From a virus: DNA of 64,000 nucleotides. A program made the position numbers and the translations under genes. Every line of letters begins with the position of its first letter. The stretch's first letter is position 1. Positions 9,862 through 39,400 of this stretch are shown piece after piece. The notes below the pieces were generated by a model, which made no database searches, was not told the DNA's origin, and saw nothing but the letters and a program-made list of their open reading frames with translations. The stretch is from the IMG/VR virus record IMGVR_UViG_3300023094_000009, positions 64,001-128,000 of that record; one strand, written 5' to 3'.

Positions 9862-12800
9862 TTAATCCTTTGGTTCTTTGTAAATCCTACCCATCGTTTC
9901 CTGATTGAAGTATAGCCAATCCTGTGTTGTTGCATCTACACCTTTTTCAAAGATTTGATCATAGCTTTTTGCCCCCACCAATTTTCTAAGATTCGGAGCA
10001 ACATCATCCTCTTTATCATTGTAAGTGGATTCGATGGTTTTTCCTATGTTAGTCCATAGAGATGTCATCACAACAGGTTGCTTAACTGCTTCCTGAATGC
10101 TTCGGAACATACCTGATGGTGTGATGGCTGAAGTTTCTCCATAAGTTCTGTAGGTGATGTACCTTCCAAAATCTTCTGCAAATGTGTCATCATCGTCATC
10201 TCCACCTTTCATAAGCAAAGCCAGATAGAAAACAATATTGAGCATCACCATCTGTAATCCAACACGCTTCAAGTTCTGCTTGCTCAATTCATCCAGATTA
10301 CCAAAAGCATTTACAAAGTTACCTTTAGCTAGAAGTACATCCTTGGCAAAACTGATTGCTGAATAATACGTTCCCTCTTCTTCAATTGCGGTTTGATAGT
10401 TGTAGTGCCTTCCTTTAAACATTCGTGCGACATTGATGAAAAGCCAACCCCTGTGTTGCATCATAAGGTTTAGGATGATGTTCCTGTTAGCTGCCAACTT
10501 ATCCGCTTCAGAAAGCTGACCATCCACCGCTTGTGCAAGATTCTTTGCCTTGGAGGAAATTTCATTCATAGTAGCTTCAAGCCTGTCTTCTGTAAGTTTT
10601 TCTCTTACACTCTCCTTAACACTCACTGTTCCTCCATCTATTTCCAGAGCATCGAAGAATGTGTCATTTTGTAAGGCACTCCATTTATTTTTTATTTCAG
10701 TTTGGTTTATCTGCGGGTTTAGTGTTTTCTGATAAGTTACGAAGGATGGATGAGACATATATTGTCCATCTACAAATCTGTAGTCATACAGAATAGTGTA
10801 CAAGATTTGAGGAACAACAGGTAAGTTGGCAAATCTATCCATAGCGAACGGAGATCGTAAAGCAACTCTTCCTGCCCTCCCAGCGACACTGTTACGTAAC
10901 CTGTCTGTCGTATCCGTTAGTCCAAACTTTTCCATGAGTGCAGAGATGCGGGAGGTATTGTTTATTTTACCACCTTGTGCTGTGAATGACCCCATGTCAG
11001 CAATTACTTTTCCTGTGGCTTTTCTCACCGAATCCCTATCATAGTGCTGACCAATTATGGTGTTTTCCAAGTTATTGTAAACCCCTGTTGCAAGAGAGGT
11101 TGCAGCAATAAAAGGACTGAAAGCAAGGTTTGAAATATTAGACAATCTTTGCATCTTGATAATGAAGGGTGTCAAATCCACCTCCATTCCTCCCATGTTG
11201 ACTTGCAATTTCAATGTCTGCCTGACCCCATACAAGTGATAATCCGCAGCTTCATTGTAGGCTTTCAAGGTATCACTAACCTGCCCTTTCACTGTGATCT
11301 TGCCTTTTGTCAAACCTGTCTGAAAGGTTGATCCAATAAGTTTGTTTCTTAGAGCATCTACCTTATGTTTCGTCTTCATGCGATTTTCATAGAGGTAGGC
11401 TTCTTTGAGCAATAGCATGGAAGCAGAGAAAGTGTCTTCTGATAAAAGAGATGCTTGTTCAAGTTTCCTTCTGAACATTTTAGGCGGAAGTTTTGCTCCA
11501 ATTTCTGCCAGCTCTTGACTACCATATTCCAATACATCTATCCTATCAGTGAAAAACTCCTTAACTGTTTCTACAACATTATCCTTGACACCTTTCAGCT
11601 TTAATGCTGCTTTCACCTTTTCCAGATTAGTCTTGGAAATCTGTGGTCTTAGGAAAATATTATCTGCGCTATTTGTTTTCTCGTTGTTAATTTGATTTAT
11701 GTTAGTTACCGCTTGTAAAAGGTTGAACTCTTCAATATTGTTTCTTGCCGTAAGTTCAGAAGGACTTGCTGATTCAAGCCATTCCTGTTCTGTAATTCCA
11801 TACTTAGAAAAATAGTCTGCATTTCTGTATTTACTTAAACGTGGTGTTCTTCCTTTTTTTGGGTTATATTCAGGATCAAGTAAGGCATTATTTCCGTCAT
11901 TTTCCGTCCACTGGAAATTAGGATTCAATTGGAAATTTTCCGTGCTTGTTGGAGCCTCCGAAAGCTTACCTTGCCAGTTGGTTAAATCAGAAATCAATCT
12001 TTCCCTTTCAGCAGGTATTTTATAAGAGTACATATAGGAAGCAAGATTCCTCTCAGCAAATAAATCTGCTAAAACCTGCAACCCTTCATCCTCTGTAATA
12101 TTATCAGGACTGAATAAACCTTCCTCAAACACTTCTGCCAGAAAGTCTTCAAATTCGGGAACGGAAAACACATCAGACACACGCGACCTTTCAAGGTAGT
12201 TCTTAAAACCTTCTGTCCTCACCCTGTTTTCAGCAGTCATGTGTTCCAAAGCAAAATCAAATGAAGTTTTACCACTTTCTCTTCTCATACTTTCATAGGA
12301 AGCGCCTAATGTTTTTTCCGTATTGGACGAAAATTCAAGTTCCGCTTTTAGATTGATGATTCTTCTTAGACGCGTAGTTTCCTGATCAATTTCAATCACT
12401 CTATTTCTCAGAATAGCTGTCAAGTCTTCAACCTTTATTTCGGTGGAATCCTTTGTATCCTTGTAAGCTTTCAGAATCTCTCTTCTTTGTGAAGTAATGT
12501 CTTTATATCTGTCAAGTGCTTCTTGGCGTTTCTGCCTTTTAAGTTCATCTTGCTCTTGATTAATCTCTTCCTGCGCCAGAGAAATATAATCAGGACTTCC
12601 TGAATCTATTGAATCATAGTAGTTGTCAGAATAAGTGATACGGGAATTGTCCAGATAAAACTTAATAGCTTCCTGCCTCCCTTGAGTTGCATCAATCTCA
12701 TCAATCCTATTTCTGAATTCTTGTGAAGCCTCTCTTTCAAATGAAATTCCTTTGCTCTTGTTCTCCATTCTTCGAGCCATACCGATATTGAATGAATCCA

Positions 12801-15549
12801 ATACAAACCGTGCATCAATTGATAAGTCCTCTAAACTGGAACCTTCTGATAAAACTGTAAAAACCCCCGTATAATCTTCAGGATTAAAGTTTTCACCATT
12901 AGTAGCCAATTGCATCCTGTTAATAGATTCCTGCTCTTGAGAAGAAAGTTCATTCCACTTAGCAACTCTCAATCCTGGATAGAATCCTCCAGAATTGTCA
13001 ACAGGTGATTTTTTAACTTTTTCCGCCCTATTGATTTCATCAAGCATAGCTTTTTCTCTTTCACTAAGCCTTGACATATCCAACTTGCCATCTACAATTC
13101 CTGAACTGGTGGCTTCTGATCGCATTCTTCTGAAACGAGACATGTCAGACAAAGAATCAGGTGAGACATTTGCTATCTGTTCAAGTCTTCTTAAATCATC
13201 ATAATATTCCTTTTTCCATCGGGAAGTGTTGTTTTCCAGCTCCCATTCCTGCATTTGATCTTGGAAGGACTTAACTTCTGACTTTATTTGTTCAGTTGTT
13301 TTTTCTGGGTCTATGTTTCTTAATACTTCCTGTACATTGTGTTGATTAAATTCTTTTTCTAGGTCTTCTCTCTTTGCTTGGGGTCTTAGCCTTTGAAGGA
13401 TGTCGAGTTGATTTGTTAGCCTGTTATCCTCCATCAATTGCCTGTCCACACCATCTTCAAAATAGTAGGTAGCATTTCCCTTTTCATCACGCGCAATGAT
13501 ACTTTTCTCAAACCTTCTCCAATTCTGTGCTTCATAGGATGTAGTGTAACCTTGAACCACATTCTTAAACATGGAAGAAGTTTGGGTGTACATATCCTGA
13601 ATAAACTTACCCAAAATCCCTAAGAAAGGACTTGCGCTCTGACTTAAAGGAGAAAACAATTTATGGAAAAATCCTACATCCTTGCTCACAGCATCCAGAT
13701 TATTTATGGTATTCTGTTTTTCCTGTTCAGACATGGTGGAATTATCAAGAAGATCATTCACCACTTCATCAGATACACCTGCCTTACTTTCGTCCATTTC
13801 GATCTGCATAGTACCCATACGGCTCAAGATGTCATTGATATCCCTAACTACTGAATCAGCAGATTTCTTCTCGTTTGTCGTATTAAATTCAGTTTGTTCT
13901 GCCCACCTTCTTAGTTCATTCAAGACTTGTGGGATATTGGTGTTATAAGCTTCAAAAATAGTGTAGTCCATTAGAGACATACCATTTGTTGGGATTCCGT
14001 TTGAAGTGGTAGTTTGGTTATCCTTATTTAAAATGTTGAGATTAGCTTTGATTGTGGAGTTTAGGCTATTTATGTTTTCGAGCTTTGTCAGATTAGAAGA
14101 ATCCTCTTCAACTCTTTCCAAAGTACCTATTAGATCTCCTGCGTTATGTTTCTTGAAGGTTTGCTGAATTTTATTCAACTCATTAAATCCTTTATTTATG
14201 TCGCTGGCAATTTTATCATTAACAGTCAAGGAAAAATAAACATCATCCCCCAAATTAGATTCAGAGAAATTTGTATAATTTTCATTGAGAATGTCTTTCC
14301 TTATGTTATTTACAAGATTGTTCAGAACGCTCTTATGTCTTTGAGTAAATCTGCTTGAAATGAAATCCAAAAATCTCTGCCACAATGTTGCAACTTCGGA
14401 CGTGAAAACATCTTCCTGAATGCTACGAGCCAAAACTTTCCCAAGAATCTCTTTTCTTACCTTGTTTTCAAGTTCAATCCCTGAATACTCATCTGAATAC
14501 TTGTTTCTGTAAACTTCTGCCCAATCCCTGTATTCTTGAGTGTCTTCCACCTCCATCATGGCAGATATGATAGAAGCCTGATCATTGTAAGCTTCAACTG
14601 CTAGGTGGGCAACTTCCTCTGTAATGACATCTTGGATATTGACACCTTCTGCCAAAGCAACCACACGATTGCTTAAATCAATAAGTCCTGCTACATCTGT
14701 ATCTTGTCCATGTCTCACAGTAAATGAGGCTCTATAATTATCCATAGTTGTTATGGAGATACCTAGAGAAGATAGGAAATTTATCAGCTTAACTGTGTTC
14801 AGTTTGTTTTTAGGCGCGTTTGTGTTGTCTCTTATCTGATCAAATGTACGTGTCAGTAAGTCATTGGCTCGAAGATACAAGTCCTCTTTGTAGAGTACAT
14901 CATCACGCTCCAATACTTTTTTAAGTTCAGTCTTGGAAACAACTTCAATCCCGCCATCTCTAGTGTAAACTGAAACGTAATCAGAAACAGGGTTTTCAAT
15001 TGTAATGCTTCCGTCCTGTTCTACCATCACGTAGTTACCCAAAACTGAAGAAGCTTCATCTTGAAAAACTCGTGCCATCAAAACTTTATCACGTACATAG
15101 TTTCCCTTACCCATCATTTTACCTTGGGTAAGTTTGTCTTCAATAACACCTTTTGCTATTTGGGAAGTGATGAATTTGTTGGTGGGGGTAAGCGATGTAT
15201 TGAAAGTAGCTACACGTAAGAAACTGTTGTCTTGTGGATTAACAAAACCCAAGTCAAGTCGCCCTTCATTACCTGCAATAATAATGTCTTCCAGATCTTC
15301 CAGAGTATTACCTTTCAAGTCTCTGAAATAAATCTTAGGCTCTCCTGTTGGGTAAGTGTTTGCACTTCCTGAATTATACAGAGCTTTCACTTCATCCGAA
15401 TACGCATTGGAATATATTTGAAGAGCTATTTCAGGCGAATTGAAATAGATGTTGGAATTGATTGCTTCAAACAATTGGGATTCTTGTCCATCTTCTGTTT
15501 GTACAGAAATTATTTGACCTTGATTATTTCTTTCTACTCGACACGCCAT
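9862..15549 (-). CDS. giant virion cargo/ejection protein (1895 aa) with metallopeptidase-like segment and C-terminal TM helix
   Basis: Size and position in crAss-like ejection block; TEEVAH motif; hydrophobic helix followed by GGDDDDD. Confidence 0.75.
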   Translation of the reverse strand: MACRVERNNQGQIISVQTEDGQESQLFEAINSNIYFNSPEIALQIYSNAYSDEVKALYNSGSANTYPTGEPKIYFRDLKGNTLEDLEDIIIAGNEGRLDLGFVNPQDNSFLRVATFNTSLTPTNKFITSQIAKGVIEDKLTQGKMMGKGNYVRDKVLMARVFQDEASSVLGNYVMVEQDGSITIENPVSDYVSVYTRDGGIEVVSKTELKKVLERDDVLYKEDLYLRANDLLTRTFDQIRDNTNAPKNKLNTVKLINFLSSLGISITTMDNYRASFTVRHGQDTDVAGLIDLSNRVVALAEGVNIQDVITEEVAHLAVEAYNDQASIISAMMEVEDTQEYRDWAEVYRNKYSDEYSGIELENKVRKEILGKVLARSIQEDVFTSEVATLWQRFLDFISSRFTQRHKSVLNNLVNNIRKDILNENYTNFSESNLGDDVYFSLTVNDKIASDINKGFNELNKIQQTFKKHNAGDLIGTLERVEEDSSNLTKLENINSLNSTIKANLNILNKDNQTTTSNGIPTNGMSLMDYTIFEAYNTNIPQVLNELRRWAEQTEFNTTNEKKSADSVVRDINDILSRMGTMQIEMDESKAGVSDEVVNDLLDNSTMSEQEKQNTINNLDAVSKDVGFFHKLFSPLSQSASPFLGILGKFIQDMYTQTSSMFKNVVQGYTTSYEAQNWRRFEKSIIARDEKGNATYYFEDGVDRQLMEDNRLTNQLDILQRLRPQAKREDLEKEFNQHNVQEVLRNIDPEKTTEQIKSEVKSFQDQMQEWELENNTSRWKKEYYDDLRRLEQIANVSPDSLSDMSRFRRMRSEATSSGIVDGKLDMSRLSEREKAMLDEINRAEKVKKSPVDNSGGFYPGLRVAKWNELSSQEQESINRMQLATNGENFNPEDYTGVFTVLSEGSSLEDLSIDARFVLDSFNIGMARRMENKSKGISFEREASQEFRNRIDEIDATQGRQEAIKFYLDNSRITYSDNYYDSIDSGSPDYISLAQEEINQEQDELKRQKRQEALDRYKDITSQRREILKAYKDTKDSTEIKVEDLTAILRNRVIEIDQETTRLRRIINLKAELEFSSNTEKTLGASYESMRRESGKTSFDFALEHMTAENRVRTEGFKNYLERSRVSDVFSVPEFEDFLAEVFEEGLFSPDNITEDEGLQVLADLFAERNLASYMYSYKIPAERERLISDLTNWQGKLSEAPTSTENFQLNPNFQWTENDGNNALLDPEYNPKKGRTPRLSKYRNADYFSKYGITEQEWLESASPSELTARNNIEEFNLLQAVTNINQINNEKTNSADNIFLRPQISKTNLEKVKAALKLKGVKDNVVETVKEFFTDRIDVLEYGSQELAEIGAKLPPKMFRRKLEQASLLSEDTFSASMLLLKEAYLYENRMKTKHKVDALRNKLIGSTFQTGLTKGKITVKGQVSDTLKAYNEAADYHLYGVRQTLKLQVNMGGMEVDLTPFIIKMQRLSNISNLAFSPFIAATSLATGVYNNLENTIIGQHYDRDSVRKATGKVIADMGSFTAQGGKINNTSRISALMEKFGLTDTTDRLRNSVAGRAGRVALRSPFAMDRFANLPVVPQILYTILYDYRFVDGQYMSHPSFVTYQKTLNPQINQTEIKNKWSALQNDTFFDALEIDGGTVSVKESVREKLTEDRLEATMNEISSKAKNLAQAVDGQLSEADKLAANRNIILNLMMQHRGWLFINVARMFKGRHYNYQTAIEEEGTYYSAISFAKDVLLAKGNFVNAFGNLDELSKQNLKRVGLQMVMLNIVFYLALLMKGGDDDDDTFAEDFGRYITYRTYGETSAITPSGMFRSIQEAVKQPVVMTSLWTNIGKTIESTYNDKEDDVAPNLRKLVGAKSYDQIFEKGVDATTQDWLYFNQETMGRIYKEPKD

Positions 15550-15552
15550 CTG

Positions 15553-15939
15553 TTATAAATTATTTGCGATTGCCAGAACTTCTGCTTCTGTTTTTCTTGT
15601 GATTATTTTTACTTTTGCGCCGATTTTGGCGTTGTCCTCGTCTACTGTACTGAACAAGTTTCCACAAACTTTCCTTATTTCGTATTTTGGCATGTTTGTT
15701 GTTTTAGAGAATCCCTTTTCGCGGATTATCCGGTATTTTAGATTCAATTTACCTATGGAAATAACTTCGCCTTTATTGAGGAAAGTCTTTAAGGTAATCA
15801 CCCACTTTCCCTTTTCTAAATCCATTTCCTCTGCAACGTAAGTAATGTTCAAGCCAACTCTGCTGTCAACTAAAACGGTACGAGATGGGTAATAGTTCCC
15901 AGTGTAAACAATTACAGGATCTTTTTTACATTCTTCCAT
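15553..15939 (-). CDS. hypothetical protein
   Basis: 128-aa ORF with its own promoter. Confidence 0.65.
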   Translation of the reverse strand: MEECKKDPVIVYTGNYYPSRTVLVDSRVGLNITYVAEEMDLEKGKWVITLKTFLNKGEVISIGKLNLKYRIIREKGFSKTTNMPKYEIRKVCGNLFSTVDEDNAKIGAKVKIITRKTEAEVLAIANNL

Positions 15940-15946
15940 TTGTTTG

Positions 15947-15954
15947 CAAATTTA
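15947..15954 (-). promoter_or_regulatory. -7 promoter element TAAATTTG
   Basis: TAnnTTTG 7 nt before ATG 15939. Confidence 0.7.
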
Positions 15955-15969
15955 ATGAAATTAATTGAA

Positions 15970-18135
15970 TTACAATGCACATTCGTTGAATTCTTTTTGG
16001 ATATTTTCTAATTCCGATTGAGGGTACAAATTGGTCATCTCTAAATTCGTGTCATTAACTGATTGCTTTGTGGTGACTTCTAATGTCTCCATATTCACTT
16101 CTTGTGGAAGGATAGGCTCAATACTCCTGACAGCTGAATTCAGTTTTTGTTCTGCTCGGTTTCTGTTGAAAGAGAAATTTGTATTTGTGTCGAAATAAAC
16201 ATTATTTTCCTCGACTCTGATTTGACCATAGATAGAGCCATCCACTGAATCCAAAAGTTTTCGGTAAATATTCTCTCCTGTTCTCAGGTACAAGTCTGTA
16301 TTTGGAGCTGTTATAATGAACTCTTCATCTGAAATAAAATTACCCATCTGCAACTCCTTTACAGAATCTGGGTTATTTAAAGCTTCTAAATCTTCATTAA
16401 TGTAGTCGTCTGTCTCTGTCAAAGTCTTGATTATTCCCTCTTTCTTTAGCTTTGCGTAATCTCTCAACTCTTTTTCAAAGCGGATTCCTGTTACATCGAC
16501 ATTTGGATTACTTAAAGTTATGTCTGCATCTGTTATTGAAAAATATTTCAATATTTTATTGTAGACAGGTGTGTTGTTTGACTTCTGCTCCAATTGGTAA
16601 GCATAAAAATCAGATACGAATTCTGTTTTAAGATATTCAGGATTCTCCGCAAAGCTGGCTTGATTTGTACCTAAAGGAGAGTGGTCAAAAATAACTTGAT
16701 AAAGAGAGATTTCTTCACCAAAACTGGAATCAAAGCCTATTTCTCTTGACTGTATAAACCTTCTTATTCCCTCTCTTGTGAATATTTCGTTTTCTGCAAG
16801 TTTTAGGTTTTCTGTGTCAAAATACTTTGGATCAATATTAATGGTGTTTTCAAGGTATGCCCTATAAACTGCATCATAAAGATTTTCCAGTGAAGTTCTT
16901 TGAACTCTTTGATATAGTCCTGAGTTGTCAATTCTTATTAGTCCTGAATTTTCGAATAGCGCATCCTCACTAAAGTTTGTATCTACCCTTACAATGTTCA
17001 GGGGTTTGTATTTTTCTGGAAGTGTTTCAAGTACGCTGTTCATAGGAGGTACTATCAGGGAATCTTTAATTAAGGAAAAGCTGTTAATATTTTCGTCCAC
17101 CGGATTATTCAGCATACCAACTGTTGATCTTACCAAGTCAATTACTCCTTGCCTGTTTGAAAAGTTTTGTTCTATTCCTACTACATCAACATTGTATTGG
17201 AGGAGTTCACTTGTAGTTTCTTTTAACAGTTTTTTAATTGCCGACTTTTTATCATCCCAAACTTCCTCTTCAATGCTCTCTAGGAAATCTAGAGTTTCCT
17301 CTAATTCAACCGTATCTACATTTGCCAGAATAGTATTTCTTGTTGTGGTGAAGGTAGAAAGATTCCTTGAAGTGAATGTATTCCCATCAAAAAATAAGAC
17401 AGGTACGTTAGTCTTGTCTTGAAGATAGTTAGTGATGCGATTGATAAAACTGCTTGAATCCAGTAACGCTGAAAACGCTGAATCAGCAATTGCTTTAACT
17501 AAAGAAGGCTTGGAAAAATCTCCATTAGCTGTATCAGAAATTGTTTTTATAATGTCTTGTTCATTGACAAAAGGAAATGTTCCAAATATTGTTTTTTCGG
17601 CTTCTGTGTCCTTGAACTTTGTGGTAGAAGTGAAGATTCGTGTATTGTCTGAAAATACATCAAAGTCCAGATTATAAACATTCATTCTGGCAAGCAGATC
17701 CCTCATCTTATTAGGGTTGAGTGCTTCAATTTCTTCTTGTGAATAAATCCCACTTTTCAGGAGTCTTTTCTCATCAATTTCAAAGTACCCGTTAGGTTGG
17801 AACAGGGAGTTCATTCTTGTTGTCAAAGTGAATAAACTATCCATGCCCAAATCATTCATCATCATTCTTGATTGCTGAAGCTCAGATTCGGATAGAGTTT
17901 GAGTATTGTCAAAGTTGTCAATGTAACGTAGAACTTCTTCTACGCTTGGTATCATATCATCACCAAACATTTCACTCCACCCATCCGTCTGAGTAACTGC
18001 CCATATTCTGAGAGCTTGGTCTGTGTCGCCAGTGAAGTCTAATGCTTGTTGGTATAAAGGAGAAATGGAGCCTTCCATATCAAATACAGAAACAGCTCCA
18101 TTAGTATTTACAACTCGACAACTTTTTATCATCAT
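15970..18135 (-). CDS. virion cargo/ejection protein (721 aa)
   Basis: Middle gene of the large-protein trio; N-terminus resembles that of the 1895-aa protein. Confidence 0.65.
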   Translation of the reverse strand: MMIKSCRVVNTNGAVSVFDMEGSISPLYQQALDFTGDTDQALRIWAVTQTDGWSEMFGDDMIPSVEEVLRYIDNFDNTQTLSESELQQSRMMMNDLGMDSLFTLTTRMNSLFQPNGYFEIDEKRLLKSGIYSQEEIEALNPNKMRDLLARMNVYNLDFDVFSDNTRIFTSTTKFKDTEAEKTIFGTFPFVNEQDIIKTISDTANGDFSKPSLVKAIADSAFSALLDSSSFINRITNYLQDKTNVPVLFFDGNTFTSRNLSTFTTTRNTILANVDTVELEETLDFLESIEEEVWDDKKSAIKKLLKETTSELLQYNVDVVGIEQNFSNRQGVIDLVRSTVGMLNNPVDENINSFSLIKDSLIVPPMNSVLETLPEKYKPLNIVRVDTNFSEDALFENSGLIRIDNSGLYQRVQRTSLENLYDAVYRAYLENTINIDPKYFDTENLKLAENEIFTREGIRRFIQSREIGFDSSFGEEISLYQVIFDHSPLGTNQASFAENPEYLKTEFVSDFYAYQLEQKSNNTPVYNKILKYFSITDADITLSNPNVDVTGIRFEKELRDYAKLKKEGIIKTLTETDDYINEDLEALNNPDSVKELQMGNFISDEEFIITAPNTDLYLRTGENIYRKLLDSVDGSIYGQIRVEENNVYFDTNTNFSFNRNRAEQKLNSAVRSIEPILPQEVNMETLEVTTKQSVNDTNLEMTNLYPQSELENIQKEFNECAL

Positions 18136-21100
18136 TTACAAAAATTGAAATTTTTAAGTCCTGCTTTTTCATTTACAGTGTTGACTGCTGATTGTGTTGC
18201 TGACTTTTTCTTTTTATCCTGTGTTTCGGGCGTTTCCTCGATAACAGTTTCAATTGAAGCCAAGTCAAACTTGATTTTAGGACTTACAAAAGGGGCAGAC
18301 ATGTCCAGACTTATTGTTACATTTCCTATCAACGCCTCTGCAATGGAAGTTCTAGAATCATTCCACCCATCTACACTGCTAAGATACTGCTTTTCGCTCA
18401 ATTGGGAAAATAAGTTGTCAAAAGCTTCACTGCTCAATCCGTTGCCTAAATCAATGAAGGCATTCCCTGTCTGTGTTACATCTATTCCAGCTCTGGCTAA
18501 AATTGAATTAAGTCGTATGGCTTTCTCTGATCCTTCCAAAGTCTCATTGTTGAACAACCCTTGGAATTCATTCAAATCAATTGGAGAAGCATTCCTAGAC
18601 ACTCTCACAGGGAAAGCAATATGTTTCACTCCTTGACGGATAATGACAACAGGTGTTTTTGAACTTCTGTTTGCAATAACTGCTGTGTTGATGAAAGTCT
18701 TGTCTATACTGTCAATGCTTGTTCTAGTGTAAAGCTTTCCATTCTGTACATAACCAATATCAGCAATCTTGTCTAGGTCTTGCTCCCTGATTGGTCTTGA
18801 TTGTCTTAGAACCACATCTTCATCAATGATTGTATTGAAGTTAGGAAGTCCTGCATAGACGTTTTTAACCTTGATTGTGTATTCAGAAGGGGTTTCGTTA
18901 TTGTTCAATATTAAGCTCATAAGAAAAGCATCATCGTTTGCAATTTCCCTTCTTAGAGATGCAAACTTTGAATCATCGCCCTTGAATCTTCCTGTATCGT
19001 CTCCTTTTGTTCCTTTCAATACTTGAACGTTGGCTGTATCTGCATTCATTGCTGTTATTCTCAGCTCTGTTGCAATTCTTGTCCTTAGTTCAGGAGAGAT
19101 TCTTAAAGTTGTCGATTGGCTTTCCTTTGCCTCAATCGTGTTTTCTGCTTTCTCCCTGATTGTCGCCGTCAAATCCCTTACTTGTTGCGTCTTCTTGTTT
19201 ATCTTGGATTGGTTTGCTGTTGTCTTTGGAAGATTGTTCAGACTAAGAAGTTCAGCTTGTAATTTTATTACAGTTTTGTTTTTATTAAGGTTTTTCTGGA
19301 ATTCCAGTTCTATTGCGTTCTCTCTCTGCTCATCCGTTATGATACTATTTGCATTCTCTCTGATTATGGCATCAAAGATAGACCTATTCCAATCATTGTT
19401 TGGATCAACAGCTAGTGTGAGGATCTCTCCGTCCCTTACATTGAAAACATCTTCCCTGCTTATATCATTATCGTAATCTGAATTGAGCGGAACCCAAGAT
19501 TGAACTCCATCCATGGAAGTTACACTTTTCCTGATCATGGAATAGTAGGTGGAAGTTTCATCCACTGAGCTGGACGTTATCCGAATTTTACCTGCCTGAT
19601 TTATCCTGTCCACAATTTCTCTTGTAATCTTGAAAGCTTTGGTTACAGGATCTTCTTCAACTTCCGTTTCCAGAATTTCCACTCCGGTTAATGCTATGAA
19701 GGCATCTAAAGTGTAGTTGTGAATACTTGTCAATACCACTCCATTCTCTAAAACTTCTTGTGAAACTGCTACTTCATAGTTCTGCCCAACAGCTAGATTC
19801 CTGTTTTGGGATTTATTGACTATTCGTGCATCTTCAATCACTTCTTCGTCTGTTGCTTCTACTACATCAGGAGCGAAATCCACAGGACTGTTTTCAAGAG
19901 CGACCAATTGTTTTATCAAGTCTGAAAGTTCAAGCTGATCCCTTGTTGTACCTAAAATAGATATCCACTGATTAACTTGATTCTCTAGAGTTTCAAATTC
20001 ATCCTGTTCGTCCAGAGTTAATGTTCCTTGATTTACTCTTTTCTTTAGTAGCTTTAGATAGCTTTTATACCCTTCACTTTCCAAGAATTTAAAAGGAGTT
20101 CTGAGGTCATTGTTTTCAGTTTCTTTTGCTTCGATTTCTTGTCTTCTGCTCTCAATTTCACTTTCGGTGTTAATTGGAACTACGCTGTCAACTACCTCTA
20201 CAACTTCTGAATTTGTGAATAACTCAACCATTTTAGGGTTGGCTCTAAATTCACTTCCATTTCTATCCATTACAATAGTATCACCATCAATAGCTGTCAC
20301 TGTTGAGATCCTACCAGTGACATCTCTTAGAGTCTGTCCAACTTGAACTTCACTTGCATTTTCAATAGCTTGAGGTTGTCCTATTTGTGTTATCTCAAAT
20401 GTGGCACTCCTTCCATCACGGCTAACCTCTGTCAATAAACCTTTATCAACTGCTCTTTGGTGCATTGCTTGTGCTCCATCTCCTGCCGAAACTGTAGAAA
20501 TGGTTGTCACGCCTTGATTACTCATAAGCTCAATCAGAGCTTCAAACATAATGCTTCCAGAGCCTTGACCCACTTCATTGGCTGAAATACCGTCAATCCT
20601 GAATTCTGTTGGAGAAATTAGTACTCCCGAAAGAAGTCCCAATTCATTCCTGAACTCATACAATGTGCCATCTTCTACTTCTGTGGTTATTGGTTCTCCT
20701 AGAATATTAGATTGCTCCTCGTCTACTTGAGGAGTTACTATTCCATTTTCAATGTCAGAAATCTCTTTCTGCAATTCCTCTATTCGAGATTGGTTTTCTC
20801 GTATTTTTCTTAAATTTTCGAGCGTAGGCTTGTTTGTAATTATATCAATTTCGTTGGTGATATCTTCAATAAGACTGCTTAATTCCTCAATGTTGTTAAT
20901 TGCGATTCGTGCATTTGTTGGTGCAGATTCTATGCTGTCACCTGTATCCTCTATAGTAACTTCTTCTAATGGTAAAATTGCTTGTTGGCTTTCTTCTACC
21001 CGTCTTTGTATTGCATCATAAGCAAACTGTGCACGAAGCATTGACTCAATCTTGAATTTTTCCCTTTCAGACAAGTCCGTGTTTTCACTCAATATTTGCT

Positions 21101-23789
21101 CAAACTGAGTGATAAGGTCATCTCCCCTGTATCCAATTTTTTCAAGGATTGGATTGATTGTTGCCTCATTTGCTCTCAGTTCTTTTTTCGCCTCTTCCGA
21201 CATTGAATACGGAGAGCCAAGAATTGAACTTATTAGTCCTTTGCCTTCCCTTGAAGAATAGAAATTGGTTGCTGCCATTCTTCGTATGGTATCTGAAGCA
21301 TTTGCTTCTAAAGCCAAATACCCGTCAAACTGATCTAAAAGAAATTCCAACTCCCTTGCTTCTTTTGTCTTTCCTGTAGCTCTTAGGGTTTCTACATATT
21401 GATTTAGACTTGCATATCTTTCTGATAGTTGATTGATAGTGGGAACTTGTGAAGTTTCACCATAAGATATTGTTTCCAGCCTCTTGTTCAGAGCAGTTTC
21501 TAAAACTTCCTGCCTTGCGGTGCTCTTTATTAGCTGGTTTGATAGAGCAACTTGTTTTTTAGATAACTCCTTTGCCAGCACTTCATTGCCCTCAACTGAT
21601 TGCATCTGTGCTCCAACTTCTGCAATTGCCGTAGTAAGCTCAGCTATTTCATTCTTAGTCTGTTCATATTCTGCATAGGCATTGTCTTGTTCATTCTGTA
21701 ATTCATTGAAGAACTTTAAAGTACTGTAAGCACCTTCCTCTCCTGTCAAGGCAGAAATGTTGTCTCCGATTGTATTTACAATGTCCCCTGCCTTGAAACC
21801 TTGCATAAGAGCCAAAGTGGTAGCATCTTTCAATTCAATTACTTGCCCATTAGGTAGTCTGGAATTTTCAATACCTAAAGATTCAACTGTCTTGTTTGCT
21901 TTCTGGTACAATGTGTAGTCCCTCTGGAATCCAGCCTTTAGGGAATCTTTGTACTCCCGAACCTGTGCTTCACTTTCAAATCCCAAATTTCTTTGCTGTT
22001 CCTGCGTGAATTCCAATCCATCAACAGAAGCTTCGAAATCTGCAATTGTATCTGCATATCCCTTCAATCCTTCGTTTGCTTTTATGAAGGAATAGTTAAT
22101 TGCAGAATCTTCAAGTATAGTAAACTCTGCCTGATTGGTCTCCTTTGTTATCTGAAAATTACCAATTGAGTTTGCCCTGTTCAAGTCACGGAATTTTCCA
22201 ATGTACTTGTTATATTCTTCAACAGACTTGTCAATGGAGTTCAATTGGGATGCGTAGCTGTTTTTACCTAGCCCCTGAACTCCAAAAGATGCGCCTTCCA
22301 TTCCTCTTACACCTAAAGCGGTGAGAGGTTTTGAAATTGCTGCGCCTACATTTCCTCCTGCAAGTCCTATAATACCTCCAATAACCACTTCCTTAAGTCC
22401 TTCCTTGGTTGTATATTGCTCCACAAAAGATTCTTGAAGTGCATTGGCAAAGGAGTGGATATCGGCTGTTTTAGGATCATATTTTGCTTCCAAATACTTG
22501 GACATTGTTTTACCAAAAACTCCTTGCAAGCCTTCTTCAACCACACCCTCCCTTAAAACAGGCTTGGAAACATTTACCGCTCTGCCCAGCATTCTCTGCG
22601 CCTTCGTACCTTTGCTGAACACCTTGGTTCCGTCTGCCATTGTTGTCACTGACCTTCCAAGAATACCATCTTCAATTCCCAGCTTTGGAAACTTGATCAT
22701 TTTCAGATCAAACATTTTTGAATACATTGCAAAGTTTGTAACAGAAAGTAGTGCAGCATTTGCTCCAAATACCTTGTTGGCGGTACTCTCTGCATCTTTC
22801 ATGAAGGTTGTCAGGTCTTCTGCTGTAGGTAATTCTCCATAGGTGGTTTGATAATCACTGACATATTTATCTACAGCATCAGTGTAGCTGTGACGTGCTT
22901 CCATTCCGGCTTCAAATCCAACAGACTGACCCAAGAACCTTGCTGTCTTGAATACTTCCCCTGTACTTGCTCCTACATTTGTAGCTGTTGCAAATTTATC
23001 AATTGAACTTCTATTCAGTCTTCTTAGTGCGCGGGTTCCTATTTCCCTTTCTGCAACTCTTGTTGTTGCGGATATAAGGTCATCTGCATTATTTCTTGCT
23101 ACATTTACAGCTATGTTATCGGCTGATTTTGCAAGTCCTTTAATTCCAAGTCTTGCTCCTGCTTTGGCAAATGAACTTGGTAAAGATGCACCACCAGATA
23201 AAATTGCAAGAGGAACTTCACTCAATACTGTTCCTGCCACAAAAGCAAGCCCATTTCCTACATCATTGAACCAGAAGTTAGCTGTACCCATTTGTCCCAA
23301 AAGACTTTTGGCTTTTTCTTCATTTGAATAATAGTGTGCAAAGTTTCTGTCCAATCTTTTTGATTGCTCGTCAAGAAAATTGGATGCGTCATTATCCCAC
23401 AAAGCAGAAAGCTCTCCCTGTGAGATTGCACTTCCTAGTCCATAGGTTACTGTCGCTAAAGCATCAGCTGCTATGAGTCCTGTTTTTCCTAGGAATTTCG
23501 TTACACCATTTCCTGCTTTTTCTCCCCAGCTTTGTTGTTGGGCTAGACGATCTTCATTATCAAAAGCTCCAAGATAGTTGTCATATTTCAAAGCGGAAAC
23601 CCCGTACCTATCTGTTTCAGCAACAGCAGAGGTGGGAACATCATACTTCACATTCTCAATCCTACCCTTATCCCAAGGCATGTCAAGGACTCCTGAATAT
23701 TGGAAACCTTGGGGTTTTACAGCACCTCTTGTACCTCTTGATTGCAGATCTGCTTGTAGCTTATTTAAAACTTCTTCGTTTGTTGGCAT
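18132..23789 (-). CDS. giant virion cargo/ejection protein (1885 aa) with GNAT-like insert
   Basis: Gly/Ala-rich hydrophobic N-region, EG..EEG.Q motif, coiled coils, VGQGSGS motif. Confidence 0.75.
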   Translation of the reverse strand: MPTNEEVLNKLQADLQSRGTRGAVKPQGFQYSGVLDMPWDKGRIENVKYDVPTSAVAETDRYGVSALKYDNYLGAFDNEDRLAQQQSWGEKAGNGVTKFLGKTGLIAADALATVTYGLGSAISQGELSALWDNDASNFLDEQSKRLDRNFAHYYSNEEKAKSLLGQMGTANFWFNDVGNGLAFVAGTVLSEVPLAILSGGASLPSSFAKAGARLGIKGLAKSADNIAVNVARNNADDLISATTRVAEREIGTRALRRLNRSSIDKFATATNVGASTGEVFKTARFLGQSVGFEAGMEARHSYTDAVDKYVSDYQTTYGELPTAEDLTTFMKDAESTANKVFGANAALLSVTNFAMYSKMFDLKMIKFPKLGIEDGILGRSVTTMADGTKVFSKGTKAQRMLGRAVNVSKPVLREGVVEEGLQGVFGKTMSKYLEAKYDPKTADIHSFANALQESFVEQYTTKEGLKEVVIGGIIGLAGGNVGAAISKPLTALGVRGMEGASFGVQGLGKNSYASQLNSIDKSVEEYNKYIGKFRDLNRANSIGNFQITKETNQAEFTILEDSAINYSFIKANEGLKGYADTIADFEASVDGLEFTQEQQRNLGFESEAQVREYKDSLKAGFQRDYTLYQKANKTVESLGIENSRLPNGQVIELKDATTLALMQGFKAGDIVNTIGDNISALTGEEGAYSTLKFFNELQNEQDNAYAEYEQTKNEIAELTTAIAEVGAQMQSVEGNEVLAKELSKKQVALSNQLIKSTARQEVLETALNKRLETISYGETSQVPTINQLSERYASLNQYVETLRATGKTKEARELEFLLDQFDGYLALEANASDTIRRMAATNFYSSREGKGLISSILGSPYSMSEEAKKELRANEATINPILEKIGYRGDDLITQFEQILSENTDLSEREKFKIESMLRAQFAYDAIQRRVEESQQAILPLEEVTIEDTGDSIESAPTNARIAINNIEELSSLIEDITNEIDIITNKPTLENLRKIRENQSRIEELQKEISDIENGIVTPQVDEEQSNILGEPITTEVEDGTLYEFRNELGLLSGVLISPTEFRIDGISANEVGQGSGSIMFEALIELMSNQGVTTISTVSAGDGAQAMHQRAVDKGLLTEVSRDGRSATFEITQIGQPQAIENASEVQVGQTLRDVTGRISTVTAIDGDTIVMDRNGSEFRANPKMVELFTNSEVVEVVDSVVPINTESEIESRRQEIEAKETENNDLRTPFKFLESEGYKSYLKLLKKRVNQGTLTLDEQDEFETLENQVNQWISILGTTRDQLELSDLIKQLVALENSPVDFAPDVVEATDEEVIEDARIVNKSQNRNLAVGQNYEVAVSQEVLENGVVLTSIHNYTLDAFIALTGVEILETEVEEDPVTKAFKITREIVDRINQAGKIRITSSSVDETSTYYSMIRKSVTSMDGVQSWVPLNSDYDNDISREDVFNVRDGEILTLAVDPNNDWNRSIFDAIIRENANSIITDEQRENAIELEFQKNLNKNKTVIKLQAELLSLNNLPKTTANQSKINKKTQQVRDLTATIREKAENTIEAKESQSTTLRISPELRTRIATELRITAMNADTANVQVLKGTKGDDTGRFKGDDSKFASLRREIANDDAFLMSLILNNNETPSEYTIKVKNVYAGLPNFNTIIDEDVVLRQSRPIREQDLDKIADIGYVQNGKLYTRTSIDSIDKTFINTAVIANRSSKTPVVIIRQGVKHIAFPVRVSRNASPIDLNEFQGLFNNETLEGSEKAIRLNSILARAGIDVTQTGNAFIDLGNGLSSEAFDNLFSQLSEKQYLSSVDGWNDSRTSIAEALIGNVTISLDMSAPFVSPKIKFDLASIETVIEETPETQDKKKKSATQSAVNTVNEKAGLKNFNFCK

Positions 23790-23886
23790 AGTTATTTTCC
23801 CTTTGGCATTAAATCACTAAAATGTACCAGACAAAATGCTGATTTTTAGTCTTTTATGCGTATTTTTTTGAATAAAGTTATTAATT

Positions 23887-24297
23887 TTATCTGATAAATC
23901 TGCCAAAAAAGACATTTCTTTCAGAGTTTATCGGATGTTTTTTTATCCATTCATCATATGTTTCTAACGAATCAAGTCTTTTTTCGAACTTGTCCATCCC
24001 TGAAGTGACAAATTCTTCTGAGTAATCCTGAAGGCATACATTATCTTCTCCCTGAATAAGCATGTCCATGCTGTCAACCTTGAATTTGTAAGATTCTCCC
24101 AAGTAATGAAATTCGTATTCTGTCAGTTCTTTATATTTAACCTTGTTTTCTATTTCCCGCGCCAGAGAAGAAAGTTTGTCAGCATCGTAACTTTCCTGTT
24201 TGCTTCTATGTAGTATTGTTCTTAAAATGCTACTTTTAAGTCCAGATTCCCGATCTTTGAACTGTCGGCGTACACTAACTGTAAATTTATTTTCCAT
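23887..24297 (-). CDS. hypothetical passenger protein
   Basis: 136-aa ORF. Confidence 0.55.
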   Translation of the reverse strand: MENKFTVSVRRQFKDRESGLKSSILRTILHRSKQESYDADKLSSLAREIENKVKYKELTEYEFHYLGESYKFKVDSMDMLIQGEDNVCLQDYSEEFVTSGMDKFEKRLDSLETYDEWIKKHPINSERNVFFGRFIR

Positions 24298-24595
24298 GAA
24301 TGATTATGTTAAAGAAAGAGATGTTGAAAAAGCCACTGGCCTGAGAGCTATACACTATTCCTATCCTTCTGGACAAGGGCTCTTATACCTAACTGGTTAT
24401 TTCATTGTAGAGAGATTTAAGATCTCCTCTAAGCTAAGTCTGGATTATAAGCTGACTCAAATTCTCGATGTTGTTGATTATATCGAAACAGGTGTAGTTA
24501 AAAGTACAAAGGTATATTCTTTAGAAGGCGATGAACTGCTATTGTCATCTCAGAATCCCCTTCCACTATTACCTGAATATGTTGTAAAAGAATAG
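24296..24595 (+). CDS. hypothetical passenger protein (doubtful)
   Basis: 99 aa from ATG 24296; shares CATG with the divergent ORF. Confidence 0.35.
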   Translation: MNDYVKERDVEKATGLRAIHYSYPSGQGLLYLTGYFIVERFKISSKLSLDYKLTQILDVVDYIETGVVKSTKVYSLEGDELLLSSQNPLPLLPEYVVKE

Positions 24596-24630
24596 CAACT
24601 ACATTCTGTTGTCTTAAGGCGGGGTGTGAG

Positions 24631-24668
24631 ATCACTTAAATGTACCAGCTAAGATACTGGTTTTTAGT
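24631..24668 (+). repeat. internal direct copy of the left-end sequence
   Basis: 32/38 identical to 23813-23850. Confidence 0.8.
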
Positions 24669-24670
24669 TT

Positions 24671-25615
24671 TTAAGATTTATTCTGAATAGTGCTATTTTT
24701 TAACCAAATTTTGAAATGATTACTGCCAATGAATTTAAGGACTGTACTTTTGTCAAACAGTATAGTCAATAAGTGGTATGCTGTTAGTACATATTCTTGA
24801 AGATCTTGAGAGTCCTCTAAATCTTCAACACAAAGGCCTTGGCTTTTAGCCTCGATCCGATCAATCCTTCTTCCATGACTTTTCTTTTTGTGACCATCTA
24901 CTGAACCACGGCTAAAGTGTGCAGAGACAGCTTCGCTTTTCTTTTTAGCTCCTGCTATCCCCTTAAATACATAACTCTCCAACCAATCTGCTACAATTTG
25001 TTCAGAATATTCAACAGCGTTTTGGGACTCTTGAAGCAATGCTGGCCCCATTGTTGAGAGTGTGGGTGCCCATAAGTGAGCTTGAACGCTATTTTCTAAA
25101 ATATCCTGCTTTGCTCTTTCAAACTGATCAATTATGGCTAAAGCAGAAACAAAGCGTCCGTTAAGGTTCATTTGTGGATCAATTGGCCCTAATTGGCTTT
25201 GCCTTCCCATAATGATTCTATCACAAGAAAGACTTATCATAGTACCTGCGGACATCGCATAAGTAGGTATAATTACTTCAATATCCTTAAATTTGGATCT
25301 AAGATACGAAACAATAGTTTCTGTCGCATTTGTAACTCCTCCAGGTGTATGGAGTAGTATGGTTAGACCTTTTGTGAAATCCATTCCATGTATGACGGAC
25401 ATAAAGCCATTTATGTCCTCTGATGTAATTGATAAAGTCCCTTGATTTGCTGTGGGTTTTTGGAGAAAAGCTGAAGCATAAAAAATCACATTCCTACCTT
25501 CCCTAAGTGTAGAGATTTTGTTAAGCTCTTTTACAAGGTTATCAACTAACCAGTTGACCACGACGTCTTTATCTAAAGTTTCTACCTTGGAAACTAAATC
25601 TGTCCATGAAGGCAT
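24671..25615 (-). CDS. SDH-family ClpP-fold serine protease
   Basis: LHTPGG, AMSAGTMISL, LGPIDPQ, SHGRRI motifs. Confidence 0.88.
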   Translation of the reverse strand: MPSWTDLVSKVETLDKDVVVNWLVDNLVKELNKISTLREGRNVIFYASAFLQKPTANQGTLSITSEDINGFMSVIHGMDFTKGLTILLHTPGGVTNATETIVSYLRSKFKDIEVIIPTYAMSAGTMISLSCDRIIMGRQSQLGPIDPQMNLNGRFVSALAIIDQFERAKQDILENSVQAHLWAPTLSTMGPALLQESQNAVEYSEQIVADWLESYVFKGIAGAKKKSEAVSAHFSRGSVDGHKKKSHGRRIDRIEAKSQGLCVEDLEDSQDLQEYVLTAYHLLTILFDKSTVLKFIGSNHFKIWLKNSTIQNKS

Positions 25616-35557: not shown

Positions 35558-36415
35558 TTATTCTTGTTTTAATTCTTGAAAAATACTTGGCATTTGAGGA
35601 AGGGAGGTTTGTACATTTATTTCCCCGATCTGTGGAATATTTTCTCCATTGTTTTGTTGTCCTTTTGCGTATTGTGCTAAATATTGATTCTCTTCTTCTG
35701 AAGCCTGAAATACTTTTGCAAACTCCTGCTCTATTTGTTTTTCCCTTGTTTTCTCTGCTTGCGCTTCTTTCAGTTCGTTTCTTGCCTCGCTTTTCTCTTC
35801 TTTCTCCGCCCCGATAATTGATTTCTCTAATTCCTTAGTTGAAAATTCTTGTAGTGGCAGAATATTTGCCATGTCATAAGATTGTTCAACCTCTAAACCA
35901 TGAGTATGTCCATCTCCTTCAAAATGCCCCATATCTTTCATATCCTGCGTTATGGGTTGACCTGTTTCAATCAATTGTTTGTAGGAATAAACAGGAGCGA
36001 TGTTATCAATGTTAGCATACCTTTCCTTTACTTTCTTTGAATACCTTGAATCGGTTCCTACATGGAAATGAGCACCTGTTGCACCTGTTTTCTCCATGAT
36101 TGCAGGATCTGTTTCATCTATTATACCCAAATTATACTTTACTAGAAGTCCTAACCCTTCTGGTGTATTCATGAGGTAGGCATAGTCTTCTGTATGTGTG
36201 GCTGAAATGTCAAATGCCTCACCTTTTACATGCTTCGATTTGCTTCCTGCATTCCCCGCTCTTCCTGCTGGTCTTCTGCCACTTGTAAGGGTCAGGGTTT
36301 TTCCTGTTATATCCGTATATTCCTGCAAAAAACCTTGAACATTGGGAGCCAGTGCATTGTAATATTGCTTGTAAATTATTGAAGCATCCTTGACTCGTGT
36401 TTTTTCATTAGGCAT
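35558..36415 (-). CDS. peptidase M15-like (DD-peptidase/Hedgehog fold) putative virion-associated lysin
   Basis: LTSGRR, SKHVKGEAFD (SxHxxGxAxD), HFHV. Confidence 0.8.
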   Translation of the reverse strand: MPNEKTRVKDASIIYKQYYNALAPNVQGFLQEYTDITGKTLTLTSGRRPAGRAGNAGSKSKHVKGEAFDISATHTEDYAYLMNTPEGLGLLVKYNLGIIDETDPAIMEKTGATGAHFHVGTDSRYSKKVKERYANIDNIAPVYSYKQLIETGQPITQDMKDMGHFEGDGHTHGLEVEQSYDMANILPLQEFSTKELEKSIIGAEKEEKSEARNELKEAQAEKTREKQIEQEFAKVFQASEEENQYLAQYAKGQQNNGENIPQIGEINVQTSLPQMPSIFQELKQE

Positions 36416-39400
36416 AGAAATCTCTATTAGTTATTCCAATTCGATAAAACATCTTGTATTGTGAAAACTCATCTTGTACAAGTCTGCTCAGGAAGTAATC
36501 CCCTCTCAACCTGTCTTTCCAATAAGTGTCATATTCCATGGCATCAGGATTCAATGTCTTGTTGATTTGAACATTATCATTAATCCAGATCGGGAATCCT
36601 GACCTCTCATTTTTCACATGATTGTAGATGTAGTTAAAACTCCATCTTCCCTCAATTTCACTTTGCAGGATATCAGTTGCATCAGTATTTTGTTTAGGAA
36701 ATTCGTCCCACTGGCTCATGTCATTTTCTTTCTCAATTGTAAGGTTTAACTGCCCTGTGTTTTGAAAGGAATTGTAAATATAAGCTTTATTGAAACCTTT
36801 ATCAACTATATCAGCAAAATCATAATAATTGTAATACCTTCTCACCTGCAAATAAAATTCCATACTTTCAAATAGGGAATTTGTTGCATTAGTCTGTGAA
36901 GAGGTTTCTACAATAAAAGGATACAGACTGCCATAAAAAACTTGATATGAGTTGAACAAGGGGTGGTGTGTCCATAGTCCATTATCTAATCCTGTGCTGT
37001 TAACTCCTGTCTGGAAATAATCCGTATATGAATTGTAGTAATTCGGGGTAAAAGAATAATAAGAAATCCATGTTTTAGTTATAGGTGAGTATGCCACTGT
37101 CCAGTGAGCTTTTTCAAAATAATCTTCATTCTCAAAGGATATTTGAGTGTAGTTTACTGGTGCAAAAACCTCCCTTGTGCATATGTCGCAAACTTCATCT
37201 CCAACAGGTGTGAACCCTTCTGGGCATTCATAAACCACTTCTTCAAAAAATTCATCTTCAAACTCCGTGGAGTATATGTAGTTCAAGTCAGAGTAGCTTG
37301 TTGCATCTCTTAGTTCTTGTGCTGTGTTGTTTAAAATGGCTCCTCCAAACATTGCATCGGATCCTTGGTTAAGTCCTTCCAAAGTTACAATGTGACAACC
37401 TTCTGTCAGTCTATATGGATATATATGCACCTGACGAAATGTTTGTGCCAGATAGGCTCCGGGAGAACCAGTATGTTGAGGGCCAATTGCGGTTGCATCT
37501 GAGGTGAGGATAACAACTCCATCTACACTGAATCTGAATAGGTTGTCTGCTGCTAGAATTACGTAGTAGGTTTTAGTTTCTGGTACATCAATCAAGGTAG
37601 ATCCTCCATACCATACATTTAAGTCATAGGCTCCATCCACCCATTTTCCAAACTTAGTGGTGAGCCTGTTGGCTACAACTCCACTTCCTGTCCAAAATAA
37701 TTCAGGTAAAACTTCAAATGTGAATCCTGTTGGAGACATTACATTTACATTTGCTGTTCCATTTGAATTGTAAACTGAATATAGGGCAGGTTGTTGCATC
37801 CCATGCGCTGAATTACCAGCGTTTATGAGTGGAAATCCTTCACCTATTTGTATCTTTTCTGATTCTTCAACCATAACACATTGTCCATCAATCAAGGTAT
37901 ATCCTTCTGGACAAGATATCTCTCCTTCATAGAATCCCAATTCCTCCGAATAGTTTAAATCCTTTACTTTTGGAATGTAATCAAGCTTTGTAAGGAAAAC
38001 CCTTTTTAGCCTGTCATCCCATCCCAAGGAAAGTCCAAGTCCTGCATAAGCCCTGTCCACATTTACTTGTGGGTAAGTTTGAAGGATTTTGAAGGGTAGA
38101 TGTTCCTTGAACCATTTGTCCAAGCTAATGGAAATTTCAGGCATTTCTTTGGCATTAGGTGAAAGTTCAAAAACTTTTCCTCTTTTAGCGTCTGCCCAAT
38201 AGTGTCCGAAGGGTGTACTCGTTATTGCCTTGTGCTGTGTTCCTCCATAACCTAAATCAGTCTTGTTAAAGTTTAATGCTCTTTCTACAAATATCCCTCC
38301 TATTCCAAGCTGTGAATTTGTTGATGTAAGCCTGTCTCGCAATTGGTCAACTGCTCCAAGGATGGATATTCCATCTGTAAATCTGAATAATATTTGCTCA
38401 GATTCAATTCCCCTCACATCAATTAAAGTTCCGTATTCATTGCTGAATCTGTAAAAGTCTAGAGCCTTGTAATTTAACCAAGGACTTCTTGTAAGGGAGT
38501 TGTCATTGTCCTGTTGAGAGTATATAACAGCATTACTCAAGTCATCTTTTTTATCCCACAACTCCTTGCTATAATTTACAGGTAGCAGATCAGATAATTT
38601 TCTATGCACTCTGGATGAGAATATTCTGTTGTATCTGAATGTTTCTTTTTCGCGAATTGAAAACCTGTCTTCCTGAAGCCAATCAAGTGTATCATCAGCA
38701 TTCGGATAGAAGTTTTCATGTTCTTCCACGCCTGCATACCTGTTCCAGCAATTCACTTCACTTTCCACCAAAAAGTATGGACATCCAAAATAGTTGACAA
38801 GAAACTTGTTGTCATCCTTTATGTAGAATTCATTGTTATTGTTTTCCGTTACCCATTGACTGCCGTCCCATAAGCTATAAGCACTCTTGATGTCAGGAAA
38901 GAGTAAGCCGGAAGCCGAGAAGGTGTCTTCTGCTGTCTTGAAATCTATGAATCCCCTCCCTATGTTGAATCCTGTATTAATGTTGAAATAACTTGAATAC
39001 TTGAAGGGGGTGTCAAATTGTTGCTTGTAAGCTGTTTCTGTAAAGAATGGGAATTTCCTTACAACAGAGTGTCTTGTAATGTAGGTGTCTCCTCCATAAA
39101 TGATTTCGCATTCATTGTCCTGATCTAAAACTCCACAATATCCTGTGTTGAGCCATGAAATGCTGTTTACTTCTCCATATTGGTTTGGAGTGTATTGCTT
39201 CATTGTCCCATAAGGAGAGTATGTATTTAATGTGTAAACACCTAGTTTTCCTGTTTCCTGTGTTGGAATATTTAATCTAGAGGTATCATTGAATGAATAG
39301 TTGAAAGGATAGATGTCCTGTGTTTTGAAGAACACTGCTTTCTCTCTTTGAAAGTTGTTTACAAAGTATCTTGTTCCTGTTGTTTCTTGTGTCAGTCTTT

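Follow-up and report, generated by a model that had tools for sequence, protein, structure and literature searches.

Crassviruses, the most abundant human gut phages, produce several giant proteins, including an RNA polymerase, and how these are packed and ejected is a question that was described as open both in 2023 (PMC10172136) and in 2026 (PMC13434306). Such proteins are encoded by the cargo blocks gp47-gp50-gp49 of crAss001 (PMC10172136) and g067-g066-g065 of phi14:2, g066 being the virion RNA polymerase (vRNAP; PDB 6VR4); the phi14:2 preprint noted, in addition, the fusion of all three in certain phages (bioRxiv 10.1101/2020.03.07.982082). Here we analyze three genes, designated A, B and C, from a 64,000-nucleotide stretch of viral DNA (hereafter the window, i.e. 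bases 64001-128000 of the 141-kb IMG/VR virus record IMGVR_UViG_3300023094_000009). They occupy the same place as the crAss001 and phi14:2 blocks, after the tail and cargo genes; the N-terminal domain of A and the C-terminal region of C are homologous to their counterparts in these blocks, with which they also share a rule: cysteines (Cys) sit at the termini by which successive proteins face each other and are few elsewhere. The difference lies in the middle protein, which in the window is 721 aa long and without a detectable two-barrel RNA polymerase.

The ejection proteins of N4 and T7 resemble A, B and C in being large, internal, expelled through a narrow tail and essentially Cys-free: N4 gp50 (the vRNAP, 3,500 aa), gp51 and gp52 and T7 gp15 and gp16 contain no Cys, and T7 gp14 has a single one, at position 2. 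From these sequences, Cys-free cargo therefore seems to be general among podophages, and it is the retained terminal Cys that seem to be the distinctive feature here. The 3,500 residues of N4 vRNAP have been described as loosely folded 'beads on a string' (PMC13434306). That string is one polypeptide, whereas in the window a similar length is spread over several genes with one Cys per facing end, and there is no sequence homology to these ejection proteins; by analogy, a crass-type thread would be the N4 string idea built from separate genes. In von Willebrand factor and the gel-forming mucins, terminal Cys build long linear disulfide polymers of one protein, by means of terminal domains rich in Cys and of dedicated oxidative folding in a secretory pathway; here, by contrast, different proteins would be linked in a set order through just one Cys at each end, and the likeness is one of analogy only. 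Finally, the polyvalent proteins, which hold their modules in one peptide chain that is presumed to be cleaved later (Iyer et al. 2017, PMC5512222), are giant, multi-module and delivered with the DNA, as this chain would be, and LPD23 and ART-PolyVal domains occur in relatives of the chain; unlike theirs, its modules are separate genes, apparently joined afterwards.

Distribution of cysteines in A, B and C

On the minus strand of the window, a run of structural genes terminates in three open reading frames (ORFs), A then B then C, the stop codon of A overlapping the start codon of B (ATGA). The original prediction had counted one Cys in A, two in B and one in C, all terminal, and translation of the ORFs matched it exactly: the four codons are all TGT, each at its expected coordinates (Table 1). 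It had also described the neighbouring 955-, 712-, 235- and 285-aa proteins as free of Cys, which they are (0 Cys each, compared with 36 in the 2296-aa tail protein).

This pattern is not a chance effect. Cys accounts for 1.45% of the residues (177/12,181) in the other ORFs of the window, while the seven cargo-like proteins contain 4 Cys in 6,688 residues, where ~97 are expected (Poisson P ~2e-36); the chance of all four lying no more than 6 residues from the named termini is ~1e-9.

The N-terminal CRV module that B and C had been predicted to share was recovered by profile-profile comparison, in which it extends over ~57 residues (probability 90%, E 1.6e-6); its consensus in the B family is C-x-I-x4-G-x3-V-x4-G-x2-S-x-L-Y. 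The AlphaFold model of B (predicted local distance difference test score, pLDDT, 89) comprises an N-terminal beta-hairpin, a helical core, a disordered linker (residues 678-701) and a C-terminal helix (residues 706-720) that bears Cys719. Because Cys6 directly precedes the first strand and Cys719 is at the tip of a helix that follows the 24-residue disordered linker, both are exposed in the model.

Conservation of the terminal cysteines

Lack of conservation of the terminal Cys among homologues had been named beforehand as an outcome that would refute the predicted chain; we found instead that they are kept down to ~22% identity and throughout whole families. In all nine A relatives (9/9) the only Cys lies 0-2 residues from the C-terminus, and the Cys1884 column is invariant in a 13-sequence alignment. 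At the other end of the block, 67 of 70 C relatives have a Cys at position 3-5, which in 50 of them is the sole Cys in ~1,900 residues; the three exceptions have visibly mis-called starts, and the Cys3 column is invariant among 42 aligned sequences. A Cys near the C-terminal end was seen in one of the 70 (P0042, a 1247-aa entry that is probably a fragment).

For B, direct searches of INPHARED and IMG/VR with the protein itself returned nothing and a search with an alignment as query returned two IMG/VR loci, but an exhaustive HMMER search yielded 282 relatives, of which the best 150 representatives at 50% identity (192-3072 aa) were examined. Within these best 150 of 282, a Cys is present at position 3-7 in 141 and in the last four residues in 134; both terminal Cys occur in 127, the total is exactly two in 117, and internal Cys amount to 21 in 188,923 residues (0.011%). 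Among 76 aligned sequences, the Cys6 column is invariant and the Cys719 column nearly so. Two entries that seemed to lack a C-terminal Cys, P0141 and P0122, are not true exceptions, as their contigs are frameshifted or very short; the position of P0146 was not found. B relatives consist of a ~690-aa core followed by a variable C-terminal extension of up to ~2,400 aa. Since the second Cys ends whatever extension a given relative has, it tracks the chain terminus and not a position in the fold. The residues flanking the two Cys have complementary charges, with K-C-[RK]-I at the N-termini and I-D-[EDNS]-C at the C-termini.

Some B relatives (P0002, P0086-P0088, P0120 and L003:8491-12225) contain repeats of ~55 aa (KW.IV.E..G..H..GGVDI...KA.DGL.I) after the Cys of a conserved 'CAE' motif. 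Locus L003 also encodes two further proteins, one of 280 aa that has a CHGC motif and one of 93 aa that has Cys at positions 3 and 89.

Cargo blocks in related genomes

Blocks were read in ~20 genomes, including the window, and the same rule holds throughout: the first protein has a C-terminal Cys only, the middle protein has one at both ends, the last has an N-terminal Cys only, and other Cys are few. Three-protein blocks that obey it are those of the window, L007, L008, L016, phi4:1, csAssE-Sib, crAss001 and phi14:2, and the L002 and L003 blocks do so likewise. In crAss001 the Cys are at position 2339 of 2341 in gp47, at 5, 1334 and 2404 of 2412 in gp50 and at 5 in gp49. In phi14:2 they are at position 1797 of 1797 in g067 and at 3 in g065, and the crystallised polymerase between them, g066, has exactly two, at 3 and 2179 of 2180. 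The phi4:1 series runs from gp042 (2289 aa) through the Cys-free gp041-gp039 to gp038, gp037 and gp035. According to the record annotation, phi4:1 gp042-gp037 and gp035 and phi14:2 g065-g067 were found in virions by tandem mass spectrometry (MS/MS). In every block read, the outer ends (the N-terminus of A and the C-terminus of C) are free of Cys.

Blocks with another number of proteins follow the same rule. A and B are fused in five Suoliviridae, and B and C in crAss002 and cr3_1; in both cases only the Cys pair of the remaining boundary is kept. B and C are also fused in the cyanophage Lbo-JY46 (a Leptolyngbya phage), where the sole Cys of the resulting 2748-aa protein is at position 4. By approximate BLAST mapping, the inferred fusion junctions of cr118_1, cr114_1 and crAss002 contain no Cys. 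A fully fused A+B+C protein, which is expected to be devoid of terminal Cys, was not present in the genomes fetched. Conversely, locus L017 has a four-protein block, A-B1-B2-C, in which both middle proteins (607 and 425 aa) have Cys 3 and a terminal Cys; the 425-aa link (L017:8724-10001, JGI contig 3300012020; Cys 3 and Cys 425) is an ART-PolyVal ADP-ribosyltransferase (E 5.6e-16).

Two irregularities of gene structure were noted in these loci. Between its chain genes, L017 carries inserted TnpB and GIY-YIG genes. The csAssE-Sib annotation (L005, 33086-39488) gives the C homologue as two ORFs that overlap in different frames (one of 281 aa, with Cys 5, and one of 1885 aa), probably reflecting a frameshift or misassembly and not a true split.

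Relationship to crassvirus cargo and polyvalent proteins

The nearest annotated genomes, at 22-36% identity, are those of the Cellulophaga phages phi4:1 and phi17:2 and of the epsilon crAss-like phage csAssE-Sib, and on this sequence evidence the source phage is related to phi4:1 and the epsilon crAss-like phages. A matches phrog_32390 through its conserved N-terminal domain, residues 63-466 being 36% identical to phi4:1 gp038. This domain is common to crAss001 gp47, phi14:2 g067 and a cyanophage protein; the link is indirect, in that window A, phi14:2 g067, crAss001 gp47 and phi4:1 gp038 all match one A region of Lbo-JY46. C matches phrog_37651, a family with the annotation 'virion structural protein', and is homologous in its C-terminal third to crAss001 gp49 and phi14:2 g065: residues 1174-1855 match crAss genomes, and residues 1116-1325 of crAss001 gp49 match phi4:1 gp035. 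Judged by the homology of A and C to the crAss001 and phi14:2 proteins, the A-B-C block corresponds to the RNA-polymerase-associated cargo of crassviruses, and A, B and C are probably internal virion (cargo or ejection) proteins that are injected.

A Pfam scan of window A, B and C gave no match, and thus none to LPD, MPTase, ART-PolyVal or similar signature domains. The C family has an invariant E-E-x-x-H...E patch (EEVAHxAIE, relatives P0058-P0062) in an N-terminal domain, at 14590-14620 of the window (C residues 311-319), and just before this patch epsilon-type relatives of C match LPD23 (PF18838; E 1.8e-10 in P0058) and, weakly, the DUF6782 metallopeptidase. The presence of LPD23 and DUF6782 beside the patch links the block to the polyvalent proteins.

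Two Gly-rich hydrophobic segments (residues 179-201 and 467-486) lie in the conserved N-terminal domain of A, and a third hydrophobic segment (residues 1760-1783), followed by DDDDD, is found near the C-terminus of C. This distribution fits membrane contact at both ends of the proposed thread, in which A comes first and C last.

A proposed head-to-tail tether and its alternatives

The reading that we favor, with somewhat better than even confidence, is that the facing terminal Cys pair head to tail, probably as disulfides, to give one linear ejection thread. The Cys would pair, most likely by disulfides formed inside the finished particle, so as to join the proteins as A-S-S-B-S-S-C, a thread of ~4,500 residues. 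Because the links would sit at the extreme termini, the thread would be unbranched and could traverse the narrow channel of the tail in a set order, led by the membrane-active N-terminal domain of A; the reducing cytoplasm of the host would then free the parts. The near-total loss of other Cys would protect both correct pairing and the unbranched shape. The matched numbers of C-terminal and N-terminal Cys, the Cys-free outer ends and the complementary flanking charges all suggest that it is the facing ends that pair. There is a precedent for disulfides in such particles, as the tail and portal vertex of crAss001 contain them (PMC10172136).

A broader proposal, about which we are rather more doubtful than confident, is that the terminal Cys constitute a general modular coupling code: any separately encoded cargo or effector module, once equipped with the N-terminal Cys module and with a Cys at its C-terminus, could join a thread made of a starter, one or more extenders and a terminator. 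Such a thread would be assembled after translation, like a polyvalent protein stitched by disulfides, ejected in a fixed order and disassembled in the reducing cytoplasm. If true, this would be a previously unknown viral way to order and deliver proteins. A conserved tether at the chain ends would explain the stoichiometry, the exit order, the near-absence of Cys and the occurrence of the same modules in fused form in one phage and as separate proteins in another. Neither cysteine nor these termini are mentioned in the crAss001 structural atlas (PMC10172136), the phi14:2 polymerase preprint, the epsilon crAss-like genome paper, the polyvalent-protein survey (PMC5512222) or the 2026 N4 paper (PMC13434306), which suggests that a role of facing-end Cys as an end-to-end tether, as proposed here from sequence comparison, has not been described before.

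Head-to-tail coupling of the facing ends in gene order, the core of the original prediction, is strongly favored by the comparative data. Several points weigh against the disulfide thread. The C-terminal Cys of B becomes internal in its closest relatives: P0002, P0003, P0086, P0087, P0088 and P0120 have 60-300 residues after the second Cys, and the link would be branched there. The last Cys of crAss001 gp50 likewise lies 8 residues before the end, and the fused giants of gut phages have 3-8 internal Cys. An extra protein with one terminal Cys is encoded in Lbo-JY46 (XAI97385) and in L016 (a 130-aa ORF), so the Cys counts are not always balanced. The loss of junction Cys in fusions is equally predicted by any role that requires only a free terminus. 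Lastly, synthesis of A, B and C takes place in a reducing cytoplasm, and the hosts are in many cases strict anaerobes; oxidation would have to follow assembly, and both its timing and its means are problematic. The single sulfhydryl oxidase family sought in the 141-kb record, Erv1/ALR, was not found. The record does contain a small glutaredoxin-like ORF outside the window (83 aa, PF00462, 27.5 bits; G000:C1:35906-36106). Complex prediction with full-length B and the last 150 residues of A gave an ipSAE of 0.01-0.02 with an uncertain fold for the partner, a result that counts neither way.

The timing problem would disappear if the facing ends were coupled head to tail without a disulfide, by a bridging metal in the manner of a zinc clasp, perhaps with the help of a conserved Asp, or by another thiol cross-link. 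A metal clasp could form in the reducing cytoplasm before packaging, all the comparative support for pairing of facing ends applies to it equally, and an Asp is present at -2 in 75 of the 134 B C-termini. We nonetheless regard it as unlikely: each junction offers just two Cys, with no conserved His or second Cys nearby, the C-termini of A have no common ligand pattern, and the removal of the other Cys is better explained by the avoidance of disulfide scrambling. A slightly lower probability still attaches to the terminal Cys pairing elsewhere, be it with other particle components such as Cys-rich portal, tail or capsid-interior proteins, in a B closed on itself plus an A-C link, or in A-A and C-C homodimers. 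The disulfide-bonded tail and portal-vertex proteins of crAss001 and the Cys-rich tail proteins of the window could provide such partners, extra single-Cys proteins exist, and the loss of junction Cys fits this reading as it fits any in which a free terminus is all that matters; what it leaves unexplained are the Cys-free outer ends in every block read, the matching of C-terminal and N-terminal Cys numbers in two-, three- and four-protein versions, and the complementary flanking charges.

The Cys might also act after ejection, in acylation or membrane anchoring, in redox sensing, or in a catalytic or processing role at the termini. We consider this improbable, and the least probable of the three alternatives, even though the hydrophobic segments of A and C suggest membrane contact, T7 gp14 too has its single Cys near the N-terminus, and a zincin-like protease domain has been reported in C relatives (bioRxiv 10.1101/2020.03.07.982082): neither a lipobox nor a signal peptide is present, no conserved catalytic partner stands beside the Cys, and proteins of unrelated fold (the B core, an RNA polymerase and an ART-PolyVal protein) all follow the rule, which fits a generic connector better than an enzymatic role. 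Other candidates were rejected outright. Split inteins or trans-splicing are contradicted by the lack of any intein or Hint Pfam match and by the position of the Cys, which at 0-8 residues from the ends are too close for intein halves to fit; joining akin to native chemical ligation, by the Cys being at position 3-7 and not 1; and lipoprotein or CaaX-type lipidation, by the absence of signal peptide, lipobox and CaaX spacing alike. A single Zn(Cys)4 site made from all four Cys does not fit either, as four-protein chains would hold six Cys and two-protein chains two.

Search for an RNA polymerase in this lineage

Unlike in crAss001 and phi14:2, the middle protein is not recognisably an RNA polymerase in this lineage, as judged from its sequence. 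A DxDxD scan showed that the DFDxD motif is absent from the block, and a DYDND motif in A is not conserved. When each of the three families was aligned with gp66 by hhalign, the probabilities were ~1% or less, and a search of the entire 141-kb record gave no gp66 match. In Foldseek and VIA searches, the B model was best matched by the phi14:2 polymerase (6vr4_A), though not convincingly (Z 6.2, rmsd, i.e. root-mean-square deviation, 9.0, 312 aligned residues).

Genomic context and coordinates

The genes of interest all lie on one strand in the order 2296 aa, 285, 235, 712, 955, then A, B, C (Table 1), an order that is the same as that from gp042 to gp035 in phi4:1. The 955-aa gene directly precedes A in the relatives L002, L003, L007 and L008 and in phi4:1; the window alone has a 5.9-kb insertion (23790-29733) between the two. 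In this stretch, probably a mobile element that inserted here, small ORFs on either strand accompany the genes listed in Table 1.

Table 1. Positions, in window coordinates, of the chain genes, their Cys codons and N-terminal modules, and of neighbouring features.
Feature	Position	Strand	Remarks
Protein A, 'starter'	18132..23789	-	1885 aa; single Cys 1884, penultimate (..NFCK)
Protein B, 'extender'	15970..18135	-	721 aa; Cys 6 (MMIKSCRV) and Cys 719 (..NECAL) only
Protein C, 'terminator'	9862..15549	-	1895 aa; single Cys 3 (MACRV)
Cys1884 codon of A, TGT	18138..18140	-	
Cys6 codon of B, TGT	18118..18120	-	
Cys719 codon of B, TGT	15979..15981	-	
Cys3 codon of C, TGT	15541..15543	-	
N-terminal Cys module of B, residues 1-58	17962..18135	-	Cys, beta-hairpin, then helices
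N-terminal Cys module of C, residues 1-59	15373..15549	-	homologous to B module
128-aa ORF between B and C	15553..15939	-	Cys 4 and Cys 92
Four Cys-free cargo-like proteins, 955, 712, 235 and 285 aa	29734..36415	-	
2296-aa Cys-rich tail (muzzle-like) protein, 36 Cys	36408..43298	-	external comparison
IS1595-family transposase	26136-27098		within 23790-29733 insertion; E 1e-42
ClpP-like SDH-type serine protease	24671-25615		within 23790-29733 insertion
SRAP/YedK-like protein	27234-27830		within 23790-29733 insertion

The 128-aa ORF between B and C gave no family match and has no relatives among the fetched sequences. A 367-aa ORF is located among the tail genes, at 45334-46437.

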